Virus record (IMG/VR): IMGVR_UViG_3300044655_002046
Strand: one strand, 5' to 3'
Source: a virus
Length of the DNA: 64,000 nt
This document shows, piece after piece, positions 3,412-53,333 of the stretch (positions within the stretch are counted from its first letter, which is position 1; every line of letters starts with the position of its first letter). The notes under the pieces were generated by a model. That model ran no database searches. It was given only the letters and a program-made list of their open reading frames with translations, and was not told the DNA's origin. The position numbers were made by a program, and so were the translations under genes.

Positions 3412-4081
3412 AACATCACAGATCTCCGACATTATATGGGGAGCAACAGACTACCAGTTCCTATCATTATACAAACCTACCCCTGAAGAAGCAGGACGCT
3501 TTATCCAACTCTGGTTCGAGGATATGGAGCCCCACATTAACTATACGCGGTTACATGCTAGGGTAAGAGGCGGTCAAGATAAGTGTAATAAGCACTATCT
3601 CACTAATGTGCTGGAGTTAGGTATAGTCGCATGGGGGGCCGACTTTTATCATGATAAGAATTCAGTAGACGAATGGCGCATTCACTATTATAGTCCAACA
3701 ATAAGGCGCCTTGTTGAGAGTACCGACCTCCGTATGCCGGGGGGTAATCTGCGCTATTACTGCCAGCTGGCTATGATAGCTAATTCTGACTCCGTTAAAG
3801 GAGTATGGGCTCGTCGTACTCAGCATTATAGGAGAGATAGTTATCAGCGCCATAACCATGGTGAGTTTGGTATGACTAAGGAGGAGATGCAATTAGTAGT
3901 AGAGAATATAGAGCCTATACTCGAGACGGGCCTGTTGATAAAGTGGGGCGATTACTACTACTGGCCCGGCGCGCGAACGCGACATCTGCTGTCTAACAGC
4001 AATAAGGAGCTTCTCATCATGAACAGTGACGCTCTAGAGATAGGTAGACTTAAGCAGAGGAGAAAGCAAAATGCAGGATAA
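3398..4081 (+). CDS. hypothetical phage protein
   Basis: 227-aa ORF overlapping its neighbours, phage-type codon usage. Confidence 0.65.
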   Translation: MYLTKTSQISDIIWGATDYQFLSLYKPTPEEAGRFIQLWFEDMEPHINYTRLHARVRGGQDKCNKHYLTNVLELGIVAWGADFYHDKNSVDEWRIHYYSPTIRRLVESTDLRMPGGNLRYYCQLAMIANSDSVKGVWARRTQHYRRDSYQRHNHGEFGMTKEEMQLVVENIEPILETGLLIKWGDYYYWPGARTRHLLSNSNKELLIMNSDALEIGRLKQRRKQNAG

Positions 4082-12588: not shown

Positions 12589-12891
12589 TTGACTATGACT
12601 ATTATGAATTTCATCAATTATCTATTGGAAAAACTCGGCAAGGTGCAGTTCCGTACACTGCTTGTAACTATCGGCTTGTTATTGGCCTATAGTCTGGCGG
12701 TTATTATTGGTCGTCTTGTTTACGCAGCGGGGGTGTTGGGCCTCGGCGATGTGCTCTGTATGTTGGGCCTCTATCACGCGTGGCGGGCTATCGCAGACCT
12801 CGTACCATCAGTTACTCAATTATTAGTTAGTCCACCGACTAATCCACCGACTTCTATTAATCTCGAAACTGAAGGACTAGGCAATAAGTAA
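12589..12891 (+). CDS. small membrane protein
   Basis: Two hydrophobic stretches. Confidence 0.55.
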   Translation: MTMTIMNFINYLLEKLGKVQFRTLLVTIGLLLAYSLAVIIGRLVYAAGVLGLGDVLCMLGLYHAWRAIADLVPSVTQLLVSPPTNPPTSINLETEGLGNK

Positions 12892-22838: not shown

Positions 22839-22885
22839 AAGCCAAAGTAATAGCTAAAGGATGGGGTTTCAGCCCCATTTTTCTG
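22834..22885 (+). mobile_element. isolated IsrB-element right-end remnant
   Basis: gctaaaggatggggtttcagccccattttt matches the right end at 38600-38634; followed by ATGA. Confidence 0.65.
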
Positions 22886-23044
22886 ATGATTAACGACCAA
22901 CCACACTGGTACACAACAGAGTACCTCAACAGATTTAATATTCAACTACTAACAGAGTCCGACAAGTCCGAGGCATAAGAAGATACGGTCATCTTCCACG
23001 GACCCTTTAAAACAGTAGAAGAAGCTATAGAGTTTGAGAAAGAA

Positions 23045-23230
23045 GTGCCTTATTGTACTTGGACTTGGGAGGAAGAAGGGACGACTTGGGAGGAAGAAGG
23101 GGCTTGGAATACCTCATGTGTCCACCAGTTTGTCGTTAACAACGGCACCCCTTTAGAGAACGGTATGATTTACTGTTGTTACTGCGGACGAAAGCTAAAG
23201 AAGGCCCGCGCTTCACCAACCTCGTCGTAG
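23045..23230 (+). CDS. small Cys-rich protein, 3' end hit by the omegaRNA element
   Basis: YCTW...SCVH...YCCYCGRK; scaffold begins at 23212 inside the ORF. Confidence 0.55.
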   Translation: MPYCTWTWEEEGTTWEEEGAWNTSCVHQFVVNNGTPLENGMIYCCYCGRKLKKARASPTSS

Positions 23231-23428
23231 AACGGCGAGGATTGCCGGAATCAACTCCGGCGACGTAAGAGGCGAATAGCCCGTAGAGCCGCTAGATGTT
23301 ACAGACTTCCGAATGCTTCCCTAGTTCGGACAAACTCTAAGCCCGATTGGTCAGGCGTTGGGTAAAGCCAAGACATATTTCTAGCGGTGGGCGAAGGGAC
23401 TTTAACTCAACTCTTGAGGATTATCTCC
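23212..23428 (+). ncRNA. IsrB/IscB omegaRNA scaffold (stand-alone copy)
   Basis: Aligns end to end with 37264-37477, including acagacttccgaat.cttccctagttcgga and gaagggactttaact..actctt.aggattatctccATG. Confidence 0.8.
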
Positions 23429-24436
23429 ATGCAAAGAGTACACGTAATTTCCCTAGACAATCGACCTTTAATGTCGACCAAAGCGAGTCGGGCGAGACGG
23501 TGGATTCAATCCGGCAAAGCGCAGTTAAATAGTATCGTAGCCACTCATTATAATACCAGCCCGAGCTGGGTCAAACACAGGAGCATCATGACAGATGATA
23601 TGCCTCTTAAAGAGCAACAAGAGAAATTTATGCAAATGCCCGATGAGAATATTGATTATTCAGATATTCCTCCCCTAGGTGATAAATTTTTCAAGAATGC
23701 TAAACTGGTCAAACCAAATCCACAAACAGAGCAAAAAGGAATGATTTCTATTATGAAACTTAAAGGCACTATTCGGGTATTTTTAGAAGGTTCAGAAGAT
23801 GGACTCCAGCGCCTAGCAGATTTACATCAATCGGGGGAATTGCAGGCCCTTTTCAATGAACTTAAACCAGACAATATGCCCAAAATTGTCGTCACAAAAG
23901 TCGAGTTCACTACAGATGCAAAAGTTAAAGTCGAGTTCTCTACAGATGCAAAAGTTATTGAAAAAGCCAAATTAATTAAGGCAATTCGAGAGGGAACAAT
24001 CGATAAGACAACTCTACAACAAGTTGATTTAAGTGGAGCTGACCTGAGAAGAGTTAACCTGTGGGGGGTTAAACCGAGTGAGACTGACCTGAGTGAGGCT
24101 AACCTGAGTGGGGCTAACCTAAGTGGGGCTGACCTGTGGAAAGCTGACCTGTGGAAGGCTAACCTGAGTGCGGCTAACCTAAGTGAGGCTGACTTGAGTG
24201 GGGCTGACTTGAGTGGGGCTATCCTGAGTGGGGCTATCCTGAAAAGAGCTGACCTGAGTGGGGCTGACCTGTGGAGGGCTAACCTAATTGAGGCTGACCT
24301 AAGTAGTAGTAACCTGAGTGGGGCCGACCTGAGTGGGGCTGGCGTTGAAAACGCTATCTTTATCAATGCAACGGGGATCACCCCTGAACAAAAGCAGGAT
24401 TTAATTCGACGAGGGGCAATTTTTGCAGAGATTTAG
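23429..24436 (+). CDS. chimera: IsrB PLMP/RRXRR N-terminus, BrnA-antitoxin-like segment, pentapeptide repeat protein
   Basis: MQRVHVISLDNRPLMSTKASRARRWI; ENIDYSDIPPLGDKFFKNA; pentapeptide repeats; internal AGGAG plus ATG at 23588. Confidence 0.75.
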   Translation: MQRVHVISLDNRPLMSTKASRARRWIQSGKAQLNSIVATHYNTSPSWVKHRSIMTDDMPLKEQQEKFMQMPDENIDYSDIPPLGDKFFKNAKLVKPNPQTEQKGMISIMKLKGTIRVFLEGSEDGLQRLADLHQSGELQALFNELKPDNMPKIVVTKVEFTTDAKVKVEFSTDAKVIEKAKLIKAIREGTIDKTTLQQVDLSGADLRRVNLWGVKPSETDLSEANLSGANLSGADLWKADLWKANLSAANLSEADLSGADLSGAILSGAILKRADLSGADLWRANLIEADLSSSNLSGADLSGAGVENAIFINATGITPEQKQDLIRRGAIFAEI

Positions 24437-29996: not shown

Positions 29997-30203
29997 ATGG
30001 ATACAAAGAATACAAATTCACTAACACTTGAGCAAGAATTACGGCTGCGCGCTACGTCAGATACTATTGATAAGATGACGTTAGAGCAGGCTCGTGATAC
30101 GCTCAAGGATATGGTAAGGCAAGCAATGATTAAAGATAATCTATTCGCGGCTATCATCAAGAAGAATTGGGGTCTAGAGTTAGCGGCCCCGCCTAATCAC
30201 TAA
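29997..30203 (+). CDS. nblA: phycobilisome degradation protein NblA
   Basis: LTLEQELRLR...KMTLEQARDTL...QAMIKDNLFAAIIKKNWGL; AGGAG RBS. Confidence 0.88.
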   Translation: MDTKNTNSLTLEQELRLRATSDTIDKMTLEQARDTLKDMVRQAMIKDNLFAAIIKKNWGLELAAPPNH

Positions 30204-30212
30204 CACCTACTT

Positions 30213-30238
30213 GGGGTGGTCAGAGCCGCCCCTTTTTT
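30213..30238 (+). terminator. intrinsic terminator
   Basis: GGGGTGGT-caga-GCCGCCCC followed by TTTTTT. Confidence 0.8.
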
Positions 30239-30256
30239 GTCACTATCTGGAGATAT

Positions 30257-36915: not shown

Positions 36916-36939
36916 GACCTGTCCTAGACAGGTCTTTTT
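36916..36939 (+). terminator. intrinsic terminator
   Basis: GACCTGTC-cta-GACAGGTC followed by TTTTT. Confidence 0.75.
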
Positions 36940-36942
36940 GTT

Positions 36943-37281
36943 GTCACTAACCCCGCCCTAAGACGACAGGAGTAAATGTCACTAACCCTGCTCTATATCT
37001 GGAAGTTACGGGTCACTAACCCCGCCCTAAAGAGATAGGGCTTGCCTAATCTCCGACACACCTATCGTCGGTAATGGTCACTAACCCTACCCTAAAAGCG
37101 ACGGGGCTTGCCTAATCTTCGACACACTTATGGCTACCGGTCACTAACCCCGCCCTAAAAAGATTGGGGTTAATGTCACTAACCCTACCCTATATCTGGA
37201 GTGTCACTAACCCTACCCTATATCTGGAAGTTACGGGTCACTAACCCTACTCTATGGGTAGGTTTCATTAGCCCTACCCTA
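36943..37281 (+). repeat. CRISPR-like array of omegaRNA 5'-end copies
   Basis: GTCACTAACCCYRCYCTA at 36943, 36978, 37012, 37077, 37140, 37175, 37203, 37237; a degenerate 9th copy at 37264 continues as the full scaffold. Confidence 0.9.
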
Positions 37282-37477
37282 AAGGGACAGGGTTTGCCTA
37301 GACCAATTTAGGCAACGCAAGTAGAGACTACCGCATTGAGACACAATCTGGCACAGACTTCCGAATACTTCCCTAGTTCGGATTACCTCTAAGCTTTATT
37401 GGTAAAGCGTTGTTAGACAAGGCATCTTGATTGTGTTGCGGGAAGGGACTTTAACTTTACTCTTAAGGATTATCTCC
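37264..37477 (+). ncRNA. IsrB omegaRNA scaffold
   Basis: Directly upstream of isrB; hairpins CCCT..AGGG, TTGCCTA..TAGGCAA, CCGAA..TTCGG; homologous to 23212-23428 and 44563-44626. Confidence 0.82.
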
Positions 37478-38575
37478 ATGGAAAGAGTTCCTGTTATTTC
37501 AAAAGACGGAAAGCCGTTAATGCCTACCAAACCCAGTCGGGCCAGACGGTGGATTAAGGAAGGAAAAGCTATCGGCAAATTCAACGACTTAGATATTTTC
37601 TATGTCCAGCTAACCGATGAACCTTCCAATAACAAAACCCAACCAATTGCCATTGGTATTGACCCAGGTAAATTATTCTCTGGAATCGGTGTTCAATCTT
37701 CTCTTTTCACTCTCTGGAAAGCTCACTTAGAACTCCCCTTTAAACGAGTCAAAGAGCGCATGGACAATAGACGGTTAATGCGACGGAGCAGAAGGGGACG
37801 GCGGATCAACCGCCAACTTCCTTTTAATCTAAGAGCGCATCGTCAAAAACGATTCTCCAATAGAAGAAAAGCTAAGTTGGCTCCCTCAATCAGAGCTAAT
37901 CGTCAACTTGAACTTCGAGTCGTTTCCGAACTAACCAAAATCTATCCAATTACCGATATTTACTTTGAGTACATCAAAGCCGATGTTGATTTAACTTCTG
38001 GTAGAAAAGGGGCTAAGTCTGGAAAAGGTTTCTCGCCGGTTATGGTTGGACAGAAATGGGCTATTGAGCAACTGTCTCAATTGGCAACAGTCCATACTCG
38101 CTTTGGTTGGCAAACCTCTAATCTCAGAAAACATTTGCGACTAGAAAAGTCTAAAAATAAAGCAGAACAATCACCCGAAAGTCATGCTAATGATGGCATT
38201 GCTCTTGCCTGTTTTCAATTTTTAGATTATTTGCCATTCCATACTTCTAATAGTCATGGACATGATTGGAAGGGTTCTGTTAAAGTAACAAACGCTCCCT
38301 TTGCTGTCATCAAACGTCCTCCTATTAGTCGTCGTCAACTTCACTTGATGGTTTTTTCTAAGGGTGGTAAACGACGTAAATATGGTGGATCTATCACAAG
38401 ACATGGGTTCCGTAAAGGAGATTTAGTTTCTTCTCCCAAAGGAATTGGTTATGTTAGTGGAGATACCGAAAAACAGCTATCTGTAAGCGATAACAGTTGG
38501 AAACGATTGGGACAGATAGTTGTTAGTAAGATTCAGCTAATTCGTCGTTCTAACGGTTTAATTGTTTCTCACTAA
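37478..38575 (+). CDS. isrB: IsrB RNA-guided nickase (RRXRR/PLMP, split RuvC, no HNH)
   Basis: PLMPTKPSRARRW; GIDPG; bridge helix RRLMRRSRRGRR; IYFEY; SHAND; 365 aa, no HNH/CxxC. Confidence 0.88.
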   Translation: MERVPVISKDGKPLMPTKPSRARRWIKEGKAIGKFNDLDIFYVQLTDEPSNNKTQPIAIGIDPGKLFSGIGVQSSLFTLWKAHLELPFKRVKERMDNRRLMRRSRRGRRINRQLPFNLRAHRQKRFSNRRKAKLAPSIRANRQLELRVVSELTKIYPITDIYFEYIKADVDLTSGRKGAKSGKGFSPVMVGQKWAIEQLSQLATVHTRFGWQTSNLRKHLRLEKSKNKAEQSPESHANDGIALACFQFLDYLPFHTSNSHGHDWKGSVKVTNAPFAVIKRPPISRRQLHLMVFSKGGKRRKYGGSITRHGFRKGDLVSSPKGIGYVSGDTEKQLSVSDNSWKRLGQIVVSKIQLIRRSNGLIVSH

Positions 38576-38634
38576 CTTGTATAAAGCCGCCCTCCGTTAT
38601 TGCTAAAGGGCGGGGTTTCAGACCCATTTTTGTT

Positions 38635-39279
38635 ATGAAAACATTCGTTACCGCAGACCGTTATCTCCCTACTAAGAATAATAGTCGGGATGGTGGGTAT
38701 GATCTTAAGGCCCGTGTCACAGAAGACCATAAGTATGTAGCTAAGTGTCTCTTAAAGCATATATCATTACAGAAAATGTTAGAGTCTGAGAGCGATCTCT
38801 TCATCAATGGTAATATTGTAGAGCATGGCCATATAAAAGACGCACTAGAGACATGCCTACTCGATGAGAAGGGCTTCTATGCCCTGCTGCCAGGTCAATC
38901 TGTCCCTGTCCATACAGGCTTCTATGTAACCTCGCCTGGTTTACCTGAAGAAACTCAGGATAAGTTAGTGGAGATGGGTATAGGCCGCCTAGTGCGTATT
39001 GGTCGTATCCAGCCCCGCTCGGGATTAGCTAAGCATGGTATTAGTGTAGCTAATGCGCCCGGCCTCGATGATATGGAGACATACGCAGGGGAGATCATAG
39101 TGCTACTAGAGAATAGAAGTTGCGATGTTCACCTATTCGGTGATGGGGCCCGCATTGCCCAATTCACATTCGAACTGGTAGCCGATATGGGAGACTTATC
39201 TAATTATCTCGTACGAGATGAATTTGACTTAGGTGCTACTGCGCGGGGCCCCCGCGGCTTCGGCTCGAGTGGTGTGTAA
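38635..39279 (+). CDS. dut: trimeric dUTPase
   Basis: GGYDLKA, PRSGLA, NAPGLDD..YAGEI, GARIAQF, RGPRGFGSSG. Confidence 0.92.
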   Translation: MKTFVTADRYLPTKNNSRDGGYDLKARVTEDHKYVAKCLLKHISLQKMLESESDLFINGNIVEHGHIKDALETCLLDEKGFYALLPGQSVPVHTGFYVTSPGLPEETQDKLVEMGIGRLVRIGRIQPRSGLAKHGISVANAPGLDDMETYAGEIIVLLENRSCDVHLFGDGARIAQFTFELVADMGDLSNYLVRDEFDLGATARGPRGFGSSGV

Positions 39280-44159: not shown

Positions 44160-44570
44160 ATGAATATCATTGACGATTTAAATCTCATACAACCCCAAGA
44201 TTACCCCTCTAGAGAAGCTTATCAGCAAGACGTTGTCAAAGCGGTACAGGTCTTAATGCGTTTAGGTAATATGGACAATCCCTCGGCCGATTTAACCGCT
44301 TTCCTAAACTCTATCCTCGAAAAATTAAAAGAGGATGAACTGGCTGTCTACAATAGACGCAGTAAACAACAAATTATCGCCGATTTAAAGCAAGTTAATA
44401 GTGAAATTGTTAAACTCGAGCGAGAAATAGTCGACTTAGAATGGCAAATTGCCATCAAAAAGGCTGAAATATCTGTGTGGAAGCAGGAGTTTTGGACAGG
44501 GGCGGAAGGCAACGGAAACTTTGCTCGGCAAGTAGCTGAGCTGAATAAAACCTTTGCAGGAGGTAACTAG
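44160..44570 (+). CDS. host-like coiled-coil protein; stop codon supplied by the adjacent element
   Basis: 136-aa ORF, AT-rich host-like codon usage; TAG lies within the element left end. Confidence 0.6.
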   Translation: MNIIDDLNLIQPQDYPSREAYQQDVVKAVQVLMRLGNMDNPSADLTAFLNSILEKLKEDELAVYNRRSKQQIIADLKQVNSEIVKLEREIVDLEWQIAIKKAEISVWKQEFWTGAEGNGNFARQVAELNKTFAGGN

Positions 44571-44805
44571 CCCTGCCCTAAAGCAACAGGGCTTGCCTAA
44601 ATTGGTCTAGGCAACGCAAGTAGAAACTTGGTTATGTTAATGAACAGCTATCTGTAAGCGATACCAGTTGGAGACGATTGGGATAGATAACTGTTAGCAA
44701 GATTCAGTTAATTCGTCGTTCTAGCGTTTTAATTGTTTCTTATTAATTTATGTAAAGCCGCCCTTCACTATCGCTAAGGGGCGGGATTTCAAACCCAATT
44801 TTTCA
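44563..44805 (+). mobile_element. non-autonomous, internally deleted IsrB element (243 bp)
   Basis: omegaRNA 5' ~65 nt fused to the isrB 3' coding end and the right end; abuts ATGA. Confidence 0.88.
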
Positions 44806-45888
44806 ATGACTTATCTTGAATTAACTCCGGAACATGAAAAGCTAATCCCTACCTACAAGGAGCGCTGGATCCGTATGGTGGATCGCCCCTTCGATAAAGT
44901 GTTAGCCCGTCAAGCAGTTACTGAACTATATGCCCTACTCAAGAAACACTGTGACTTAGGAGATCTCGACTGTCCACCCACTATCTTCACTAGCTCGCCC
45001 ATCATGGCAGCCAGTATTATTGCTCTTATCACTAAGGCTGAGCAGGAAGAGGAGAGTATTGTTAAGGGTAAGAAGACTAAAACTAAGTTTACTGATACTG
45101 AACTCGCCTTAATCAAGGAGTTCTTTAAGCGTAAGCCCGCTACTCCTAAGAATGAGGCTGTACTGCAGAAACTCTTCGATGCTTATGTTGCAGAGCGGGG
45201 CCCCATTGATCCTATTAAGGATAAGGAGTGCAGCGGTTATATTGCTAATGGTCACTTCTCCTATGAGTGCCGTATGAGCTTTGCTGCATTCGCTAACTTC
45301 AGTGTCGAGGTACTCGGCGTGACTATGGAAGACTACGATAAGTACATGCTCATTGCTGAGAACTTATCGTGGGTATACACCTATGAAGAGTTATGTATTG
45401 TATGTGAGCGGCCCAAGGTACATTATACTCTGGACGGCGATATTCATTGCGATGGTGAGCCCGCGGTTAAATTCTCTGATGGTGTTGAATTATGGTTATG
45501 GCACGGTACTCCATTACCGACTTTCATGCAGTGTCATAGCTCTACCTGGGATCCCAAATGGTTACTAGATGATGAGAAAGGCATGAACTCTGAGCACCGC
45601 CGTATTCTAATCGAGGCGCTGGGCTACGAGAATATCCTATCACGCCTGGATAGTGAGATCATCAGCACCTATAATACTACTAGCTACGTAGGTGACGGTA
45701 ATGAGTATGAGTTACACATTATCCGCGGTGACTTCGGTGGCGAGGACGCGCATATTCTAACTATGCGTTGCCCTAGCACTAATCACTATCATGCAGTACG
45801 TGTTGATCCTAAGCACACCTCAGCCCGCGAAGCTGTAATTGAATTCAATAACGGCATAGATCCCGAGAGCTTCGAAATTCAGACTTAA
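44806..45888 (+). CDS. DUF6745-like protein
   Basis: LCIVCERP..H..DG..HCDGEPAVKFSDG..LWLWHG; NSEHRR; MRCPST...RVDP...SAREAV. Confidence 0.7.
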   Translation: MTYLELTPEHEKLIPTYKERWIRMVDRPFDKVLARQAVTELYALLKKHCDLGDLDCPPTIFTSSPIMAASIIALITKAEQEEESIVKGKKTKTKFTDTELALIKEFFKRKPATPKNEAVLQKLFDAYVAERGPIDPIKDKECSGYIANGHFSYECRMSFAAFANFSVEVLGVTMEDYDKYMLIAENLSWVYTYEELCIVCERPKVHYTLDGDIHCDGEPAVKFSDGVELWLWHGTPLPTFMQCHSSTWDPKWLLDDEKGMNSEHRRILIEALGYENILSRLDSEIISTYNTTSYVGDGNEYELHIIRGDFGGEDAHILTMRCPSTNHYHAVRVDPKHTSAREAVIEFNNGIDPESFEIQT

Positions 45889-45890
45889 GC

Positions 45891-46646
45891 ATGACAGCGC
45901 TATATCGAGCCGTACAATTCAACCCGCAGTGTGCCGCCTGTAGTCTATCTACTAAACAGGCAGTGAGTGGTCAGTCTGAGAGACCTATTAAGGATGTAAT
46001 ACTAGTAGCCATCTCGGCCTATCCTGGTAAACGGGAGGAGGACGCTAAGATGAGCCTCGCTCCTGGCACTAACAATGAGGATACTAGTGGCGCCGGGGCC
46101 TTCCTCCGGCGTTGCTTATATTGGGCCATAGAATGTGACCCTACGTGGGATGGGCCCCCCATTAACGAGCTAGTATACTTCACTAATGCTATAAAGTGCT
46201 CCCCTCGAGACAAGACCGTTAAAGATATACATCGCTCCCGCTGTCGAGATACCTGGCTATTCCCTGAGCTCACAGCACTACCAACTGGTGTGCCTCTATT
46301 ACTAGCAGGCAGCGAGGCAGTTAAGGCCATACACGGTCTCGATGCCTCTATAGCCAGCTACAGGGGGGCTGTCTATAACTGGCGGGGCCATCCTACTGTA
46401 ACTACGTTTAATCCAATAGAGGTAGAGAGAGGTGTCTTCTATAAGACTATTATAAATGAAGAGGATGTTAAACGTGACCTCGAGGCCCTACTTCGCAGTA
46501 AGAAGGCCCTGCGAGATAGTGACATCGATAAGGTAGTTAAGACTCGTATGTGGAACCCCGTCCCTGTAGGTAGTATGATGTGGTACTTTAGGAAGGATAT
46601 AAATATCATCAAGCAGGAGATACTGAACTATGCAAACACAAAATAA
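45891..46646 (+). CDS. uracil-DNA glycosylase family 4-like
   Basis: CAAC, SAYPGKREE, YFTNAIKCSP, CRDTWLFPEL, LLLAGSEA. Confidence 0.8.
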   Translation: MTALYRAVQFNPQCAACSLSTKQAVSGQSERPIKDVILVAISAYPGKREEDAKMSLAPGTNNEDTSGAGAFLRRCLYWAIECDPTWDGPPINELVYFTNAIKCSPRDKTVKDIHRSRCRDTWLFPELTALPTGVPLLLAGSEAVKAIHGLDASIASYRGAVYNWRGHPTVTTFNPIEVERGVFYKTIINEEDVKRDLEALLRSKKALRDSDIDKVVKTRMWNPVPVGSMMWYFRKDINIIKQEILNYANTK

Positions 46647-46893: not shown

Positions 46894-47061
46894 TCCGTAT
46901 GAATATTAAGAATCTAGCGTACTGGTACCTATTAATTGGGACCTCCTATGGTCTTACTGAACGTACTATTGACCTCGCTAAACAGGGGTTCACTCCTCTG
47001 GAGATAGGTACAATTGCCGTCATAGTCTTCACTCTAGTATGTATCATCTTCGTGCGTCCCT

Positions 47062-53251: not shown

Positions 53252-53333
53252 GGGTTAGTGGCCGAGTAGTCGAAGGCGACAGACTGTAAATCTGTAGAGT
53301 AATTCCACGCTGGTGCAAATCCAGCCTAACCCA
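53252..53333 (+). tRNA. trnY: tRNA-Tyr (GTA)
   Basis: Acceptor GGGTTAG/CTAACCC; anticodon arm ACAGA-ctGTAaa-TCTGT; long variable arm; T arm GCTGG-TGCAAAT-CCAGC; CCA not encoded. Confidence 0.92.

Follow-up and report, generated by a model that had tools for sequence, protein, structure and literature searches.

The stretch of DNA analysed here, referred to as the window, comprises 64,000 nucleotides of a Microcystis phage that is about 93% identical to Ma-LMM01. At positions 36943-38634 it carries an inserted block that precedes the ATGA start codon (38635-38638) of a dUTPase gene; the parts of the block described below all lie on the + strand. To the left of the block is a terminator-like hairpin followed by a T-run (36916-36942, +), both belonging to the upstream gene. 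In Ma-LMM01, where this position (site A) is empty, that hairpin and T-run directly adjoin the dUTPase ATGA, and positions 36943-38634 are therefore an insertion made immediately before the ATGA. From 5' to 3' the block is composed of a stack of eight copies of an omegaRNA start (36943-37263), a complete omegaRNA scaffold of the HEARO type (37264-37477, 214 nt), an intact isrB gene encoding 365 aa (37478-38575) and a 3' end (38576-38634) with a GC-rich hairpin and a T-run, which aligns with the 3' ends of a mini element elsewhere in the window and of copies in host genomes. The ATGA at 38635-38638 (+) is both the target-adjacent motif (TAM) of the element and the start codon of the dUTPase, and ATGA follows every complete copy of the element that was checked, in hosts and phages, which bears out the TAM named in the preliminary description of the locus.

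Five neighbouring ORFs were scanned, including PhoH, a 69-aa ORF, the dUTPase and an exonuclease/polymerase, and neither cas1 nor cas2 was seen among them; the window as a whole contains no tnpA. An identical run of 8 nt, TTTTTGTT, ends both the left flank (36935-36942) and the element (38627-38634), and the other element copies terminate in TTTTTCG, TTTTTCA or TTTTTCT instead. The shared run may be a coincidence or a conversion tract.

The product of isrB matches Pfam RRXRR (1.1e-52), with no HNH family reported, and aligns over residues 2-361 with IsrB of D. thermocuniculi (DtIsrB, PDB 8DMB; E=2.7e-42), including the GxDPG, E and HAND motifs. It has the RRXRR/PLMP N-terminus and the split RuvC, uninterrupted by an HNH insert, that define IsrB. 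The omegaRNA lies directly upstream of the gene on the same strand and is of the structured HEARO type, so that the complete omegaRNA and intact isrB noted earlier behind the stack are both present. Rfam HEARO (RF02033) and the window omegaRNA align over their full length, with 24 bits against a gathering score of 83, and a host copy of the omegaRNA reaches 36 bits. An Rfam search of the whole window at gathering level returned only a tRNA, a gene with a long variable arm at 53252-53333 (61.5 bits). In a consensus fold built from 26 cyanobacterial and phage relatives, 39 of the 48 predicted pairs show compensatory changes. These include changes in helix P1 (G1-C against U1-A), in which scaffold bases 1-3 and 5-6 pair with ..AGAGAC about 60 nt downstream; given the location of P1 in the fold, the 18-mer that is repeated in the stack covers the 5' strand of P1 and the first half of hairpin 1. 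In the complete scaffold of the window the P1 5' strand is degenerate (TTCATTAG).

The element resembles the IsrB-omegaRNA OMEGA elements of the ISC1 group (IS200/IS605) in its full-length protein match, its covarying omegaRNA on the 5' side and its NTGA-type TAM, here ATGA; NTGA has been cited as the TAM of IsrB (PMC11237433). In a canonical OMEGA element, a single scaffold start adjoins the flank that serves as guide, whereas in the phages 3-10 extra truncated starts lie between the two. The DNA directly 5' of the window scaffold is not the flank but unit 8 of the stack, itself derived from the scaffold, and the left flank, which would be the homing-guide sequence of a canonical omegaRNA, sits 321 nt from the complete scaffold. 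The window element belongs to the IsrB-omegaRNA OMEGA family and departs from it in this one respect, that its guide position is not occupied by the flank.

The 18-nt omegaRNA start, GTCACTAACCCYRCYCTA, is found without mismatch on the + strand at 36943, 36978, 37012, 37077, 37140, 37175, 37203 and 37237, the last of these copies ending at 37254. A ninth, degenerate copy with 3 mismatches opens the complete omegaRNA at 37264. Start-to-start distances between the nine are 35, 34, 65, 63, 35, 28, 34 and 27 nt, and the eight scaffold starts at 27-65 nt spacing described previously are thus recovered as exact matches. By chance, 0.27 matches would be expected in the whole 64-kb window and the maximum in 100 shuffles was 2; the shuffles, together with recurrence of the stack in independent isolates and metagenomes, rule out chance or an assembly artefact. 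A single further match to the 18-mer in the window, at 44563, is the opening of an ORF-less mini element.

Each unit of the window stack consists of 18-37 nt of truncated scaffold followed by 9-28 nt of filler. Unit 1 (36943-36977, type d) contains the 18-mer, a decayed first hairpin and ..CAGGAGTAAAT, and as the outermost copy it forms the boundary of the element; the same type is outermost in the arrays at two other insertion sites, B and E. Unit 2 (36978-37011, type a) is the 18-mer plus TATCTGGAAGTTACGG, a filler that is identical in unit 7 and in the relatives L004 and L008. Unit 3 (37012-37076, type g1), a type also found in L004, has a complete first hairpin and a filler of 28 nt, and unit 4 (37077-37139, type g2) is its diverged duplicate (86%, repeat family D4). 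Both retain scaffold up to ..GGGCTTGCCTA, and the extended scaffold reported for these two units measures 37 nt. Unit 5 (37140-37174) is a diverged duplicate of unit 1 (87%, repeat family D3). Unit 6 (37175-37202, type b) is the 18-mer plus TATCTGGAGT and belongs to the type that forms the proximal unit, i.e. the guide position, in the site B and site E arrays. Unit 7 (37203-37236) duplicates unit 2, and unit 8 (37237-37263), in the guide position of the complete scaffold, is the 18-mer with a short terminator-like hairpin.

The sequences between the repeats do vary, as the preliminary description stated, but they are not eight independent spacers. They fall into about four families ({1, 5}, {2, 6, 7}, {3, 4} and {8}): spacers 2 and 7 are identical, spacer 6 is a shortened version of them, spacers 3 and 4 are 86% alike, and units 1-2 are 87% alike to units 5-6. 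Several spacers had also been likened to leaders bearing a ribosome binding site (RBS). Many fillers do have the look of an RBS plus spacer, but the RBS-like GACAGGAG of units 1 and 5 aligns to the 3' half of hairpin 1 (GACGGGG/GACAGGG) and is therefore at least partly derived from the scaffold. The + strand has no sigma-70-like promoter site inside the stack, which rules out the stack as a promoter.

Traces of related elements are found elsewhere in the window. The ORF-less mini element (44563-44805, +) has 66 nt of the 5' end and about 170 nt of the 3' end; it possesses a single 5' end, precedes the ATGA start of the ORF at 44806 and supplies the stop codon of the ORF upstream. At 23213-24436, a second and divergent omegaRNA-like leader, with the start TTCACCAACC in single copy, is followed by an ORF of which the first ~31 codons are IsrB-like (71% identity) and the remainder encodes a pentapeptide-repeat protein (PF00805, 4.6e-36); what is left of an IsrB element seems to have been joined here to a different gene. 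A solo IsrB-type 3'-end remnant (..GGGGTTTCAGCCCCATTTTTCTG) at ~22845-22889 is followed by ATGA. Downstream of an nblA homologue, positions 30190-30256 hold an end-like ATCACTAACACCTAC, a 3'-end-like hairpin and GTCACTATCTGGAG, all conserved in Ma-LMM01, and may represent a very decayed mini element. The native occurrence of GTCACTATCTGGAG at 30239, to which attention had been drawn earlier, is real.

The stack is real and recurrent in the Fukuivirus lineage. Every Ma-LMM01-like (Fukuivirus) genome or contig with a readable region upstream of isrB has one, with 3-10 extra copies. In these phages the element is present at no fewer than five ATGA sites, and arrays can be read at four of them. 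Site A (38635-38638, +) is occupied in the window. Site B (45891-45894, +), the ATGA start of the UDG gene, is empty in the window and in Ma-LMM01 and occupied by an array and IsrB in L004, L006-L009 and L012 (4-10 extra copies). Site C, the homologue of which is diverged in the window, is occupied in L011 and in the metagenome contig L187 (7 extra copies). Site D (12604-12607) is empty in the window and occupied in L014 and L015, where the element is known from its 3' junction alone. Site E (46899-46902, +), empty in the window, holds an array and IsrB in Ma-LMM01 (gp171), MaMV-DC and MaMV-CH02 (3-4 extra copies, 3 in Ma-LMM01). Sites A, B, D and E are thus found both empty and occupied among phages about 93% identical to one another; the element is a mobile unit, polymorphic for presence and absence, and non-autonomous. 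Where B and E are occupied, the flank has lost a few bases and the stop codon upstream has been remade from TAA into TAG.

Units recur from site to site in much the same order, with d outermost, b innermost and a, e and g between, and the phage flank adjoins a GTCAC-type copy in every array shown, from which it follows that the stack is part of the mobile unit. The locus had been interpreted as an array in the making; its array is instead inherited, sharing units with those at other insertion sites and moving with the element. A comparison of array content among isolates, as had been proposed, returned shared units that are variable in number and order. Two of the phage copies have the inner 3' hairpin inverted with respect to all other copies (L004 at ~3610-3635 and L007 at ~3965-3990; a hairpin flip).

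Host copies are organised differently. None of 37 element copies in 17 Microcystis genomes has an array and, among 77 IsrB loci probed with their own starts, three or more scaffold starts were found only in Fukuivirus contigs. Measured from the 5' end as far as the 3'-end motif, complete host copies (33 loci examined) are 1280-1820 nt long, with 1364 nt in about half of them; they are dispersed, their left flanks are unrelated and all are followed by ATGA. A host IsrB element has been reported to have jumped into phage Mic1 at an ATGA (PMC11237433). Y1 transposases that might mobilise the element occur in all 17 host genomes and in Ma-LMM01. In an isrB tree, drawn without branch support values, the site B and site E copies form a clade and the window copy adjoins the host clade.

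All phage copies of isrB are intact. Pairwise dN/dS is 0.09-0.16 (about 0.1) with dS up to 0.29, and the closest pair gives 0.30 at a dS of 0.045; on these estimates isrB is under purifying selection. The array itself turns over several times faster than its surroundings: among three site-E isolates, 7.6-17% of the aligned array columns differ and a further 9-36 columns are gaps, as against differences of 2-3% for the omegaRNA and 3-8% for third codon positions. Change is unevenly spread within units. Across 58 units, positions 1-11 are conserved at 86-100%, positions 12-13 occur in two forms (CG/TA) and the fillers are variable, although in unit d the filler stays constant across five arrays and it is the 18-mer of the unit that varies.

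The origin of some fillers can be read directly. The two fillers nearest the scaffold in L011 and L187 are copies of 12-13 nt of the left flank at that site, each set flush against the copy that follows, which means that fillers can be former guides. The earlier idea that the intervening pieces are guides therefore has some basis, in that at least some are former left flanks (L011), but as a reading of the spacers in general it fails, since most are scaffold remnants or duplicates and many, at 9-17 nt, are short of a full guide. The filler of unit 4 shares TAATCTTCGA..TGGCT..G with the left flank of L003, where a single-copy element interrupts an ORF between G and ATGA and the scaffold/filler joint falls in a shared TAA; this likeness is suggestive of an origin from an L003-type flank. 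As all insertion sites are start-codon or in-frame ATGA sequences, left flanks tend to look like an RBS plus spacer, as many fillers do. The proximal scaffold start of the window resembles an array unit of L011, pointing to recombination between units and scaffold. The source of most fillers was not traceable in searches of the window, Ma-LMM01 and MaMV-CH02.

Searches for targets were negative in every set covered. Guides of 12-20 nt had no target in the window, and filler tails followed by NTGA gave no matches beyond chance in the window or, compared with shuffled controls, in the Ma-LMM01 and MaMV-CH02 genomes. For the conserved proximal guide shared by the arrays at sites B and E, no above-chance target emerged in 17 host genomes and 5 phage records, and exact scans of IMG/VR with two spacers returned only the arrays themselves or chance-level matches. 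Matching of spacers to hosts and other phages, which the preliminary description had put forward as a check, accordingly produced no target followed by NTGA in any set searched, with searches of limited sensitivity in which host genomes were queried with the proximal guide only. A match of filler g to L136 is probably due to chance, as are those to L141-L144. L098, L101 and most of the 49 metagenome matches are unrelated tandem or coding repeats with a shared 11-mer.

By any criterion tested, the stack is not a CRISPR array. In place of constant repeats and unique spacers of similar length it has 18-37 nt of scaffold per unit, 27-65 nt spacing and duplicated spacers, and no spacer matched foreign DNA beside a motif in the sets searched, within the limited sensitivity of those searches. 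There are nevertheless likenesses to known loci. CRISPR-associated IscB / Cas9d loci also have guide-proximal omegaRNA repeats upstream of the nuclease gene with short variable pieces between, but the phage repeats lack a constant length, the spacers lack a regular size and no targets were found for them. CRISPR arrays have been proposed to derive from 'serial duplication of omegaRNA segments', omegaRNA-like arrays are known for TnpB relatives, and CRISPR-associated IscBs have been described (PMC10691335); TranC systems are cited in PMC13565253 as transposon-CRISPR intermediates. Both TranC and the omegaRNA-like arrays of cluster 17474 near TnpB/Cas12f-related genes (PMC10691335) are, like the phage stack, tandem guide-RNA segments of a transposon nuclease. 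Those arrays are of TnpB descent, follow the gene on its 3' side and consist of whole or long repeats, whereas the phage stack belongs to the IsrB lineage, lies 5' and consists of truncated, irregular units. No description of truncated omegaRNA-start stacks, either at IsrB elements or in Microcystis phages, was found in the literature.

On balance, the stack is probably a set of junction-spanning duplications and recombination scars in a composite, phage-resident IsrB element. The 5' end of the element would be the omegaRNA start and the transposon end cut by the Y1 transposase at one and the same time, and each unit would unite the first nucleotides of the scaffold with the last nucleotides of DNA that formerly lay just upstream of a scaffold, i.e. 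an ex-guide. We infer that the guide/scaffold junction was duplicated at short microhomologies. The engine would plausibly be error-prone template switching in replicating phage DNA while joints excised by TnpA or nicked by IsrB are being repaired, with repair following the restorative-homing model of Meers et al. Once present, the 18-mers could recombine unequally, so that units are duplicated, deleted and shuffled, and use of the outermost copy as the transposon end would move the whole stack to a new ATGA site. A complete scaffold is joined to the last copy alone, and IsrB therefore most likely takes up one guide, namely whatever lies immediately 5' of that copy. Such a guide would still match the joint left after excision of the inner element and, with the stack counted as flank, a guide matching the donor joint of the inner element could account for selection on isrB without multiple guides.

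Several observations do not sit easily with scars. A neutral stack should vanish fast, yet every examined Fukuivirus copy retains one at isrB dS values of 0.1-0.29. The conservation of the first 11 nt of the units is a further difficulty, for which gene conversion, constant regeneration or function could each be responsible. With the stack in place the proximal guide mismatches the empty site, so that phage genomes with a vacant site should be closed to canonical homing; the flank-matching guide has been lost, yet isrB is under purifying selection. The constancy of the unit d filler beside its varying 18-mer, the absence of stacks from host copies and the untraced sources of most fillers also count against the scar reading.

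In REP clusters next to RAYT genes, the transposase is thought to multiply ends in tandem. A similar process, in which a Y1 transposase multiplied solo ends in tandem and the first 30-37 nt acted as recognition hairpin and cleavage site, is a rather unlikely source of the phage stacks. The phage units share with REP/BIME clusters and their Y1 (RAYT/IS200-like) transposases an arrangement of tandem co-oriented end hairpins; every unit begins at the terminal base of the element, the filler-to-GTCAC junction resembles a normal transposition joint, and Y1 transposases are abundant in 17 of 17 host genomes and present in Ma-LMM01. The idea is prompted by a 1628-nt metagenome contig (L179) in which a Y1 transposase gene (Pfam PF01797, 8e-28) stands between regular tandem arrays of 35-nt hairpins, one on either side, and the hairpin of which shares GTCACYAACCCCG (first 13 nt) and a CCCCG/CGGGG stem with the end of the IsrB element. 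The L179 hairpins, however, are complete and regular, are separated by ATGAA and flank tnpA, whereas the phage stacks stand beside isrB and are made of truncated, irregular units with ex-flank fillers; in the window the linkers lack ATGAA. Most units are without the 3' half of the hairpin, tnpA is missing from the window, and the Microcystis genomes, home of the transposases, have no such clusters.

It is unlikely that the stack works as a multi-guide module. Any of the conserved 11-nt starts would then close P1 with the one scaffold body, in cis or, after processing, in trans; the true flank would be used through the outermost copy, for homing into the empty sites of co-infecting phages, and the ex-flanks through the inner copies, for attack or homing elsewhere. 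What keeps this reading under consideration is that the stack is universally retained, that the 11-mer is conserved and that the guide matching the flank has been lost; the pairing of P1 is consistent with it. P1 covaries and, in the alignment of 26 relatives, the window copy attached to the scaffold forms P1 with a U.C mismatch and a U.G wobble, so weakened, whereas the eight upstream copies all carry GTCAC, which matches the P1 3' strand. When folds were constrained so that each of the nine copies in turn closed P1, all came within about 4 kcal/mol of one another (-148 to -152), in an energy model that leaves out protein and pseudoknots. The best conserved part of the unit is positions 1-11, where the P1 strand lies, isrB is under purifying selection although no target was found for the proximal guide, and the origin of CRISPR by serial duplication of omegaRNA segments has already been proposed (PMC10691335). 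On the other hand, most fillers are below full guide length; they occur as duplicates, and their rate of change is several times that of the omegaRNA or of third codon positions; their matches next to NTGA do not exceed chance; and in several phages the 18-mer of the outermost unit, through which the true flank would be used, is mutated.

Some other function in cis, whether as spare transposon ends, as a buffer between terminator and omegaRNA or in control of isrB/omegaRNA expression, is distinctly unlikely. It would fit with the universal retention of the stack in the phage lineage, with the terminator-like hairpin of unit 8 directly before the scaffold and with the complete end module kept in units 3 and 4, but there is no promoter-like site on the + strand of the array, the number and order of units vary freely (3-10 extra copies), and turnover outpaces that of the omegaRNA and third codon positions several times over. 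Serial insertion of whole elements at one ATGA, each later stripped by internal deletion of all but its first few dozen bases, is very improbable: ATGA survives insertion, which makes re-insertion conceivable, internally deleted mini elements do exist (44563-44805) and L187 has a nested insertion within isrB, but no unit in the arrays shown is preceded by the 3'-end sequence ..ACCCATTTTTTCG that the model requires, and the known mini elements retain about 170 nt of 3' end. The nested insertion in L187 is an element start (GTCACTAACCCCACCC) at position 3673 of that contig, located at an isrB-internal ATGA that corresponds to window positions 37618-37621.

The stack resembles the proposed first step towards a CRISPR array, and its function as a guide array is unproven. 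It provides a natural example of the proposed duplication of omegaRNA segments, in this case for the IsrB/IscB-Cas9 branch, and is open to experiment because cultured Microcystis aeruginosa phages (Ma-LMM01 and its relatives) carry such stacks. Even as a mere scar, it shows a route by which guide-like sequences become internal to an element, and once inside, such a sequence is uncoupled from the insertion site, as any programmable array would require. If the units do serve as multiple guides, the stack would be a living intermediate between the one-guide omegaRNA and a CRISPR-tracrRNA system, borne by a phage and independent of cas1/cas2. IsrB elements are long-term, selected residents of a cyanophage lineage that controls blooms, hopping among the ATGA sites of its start codons.
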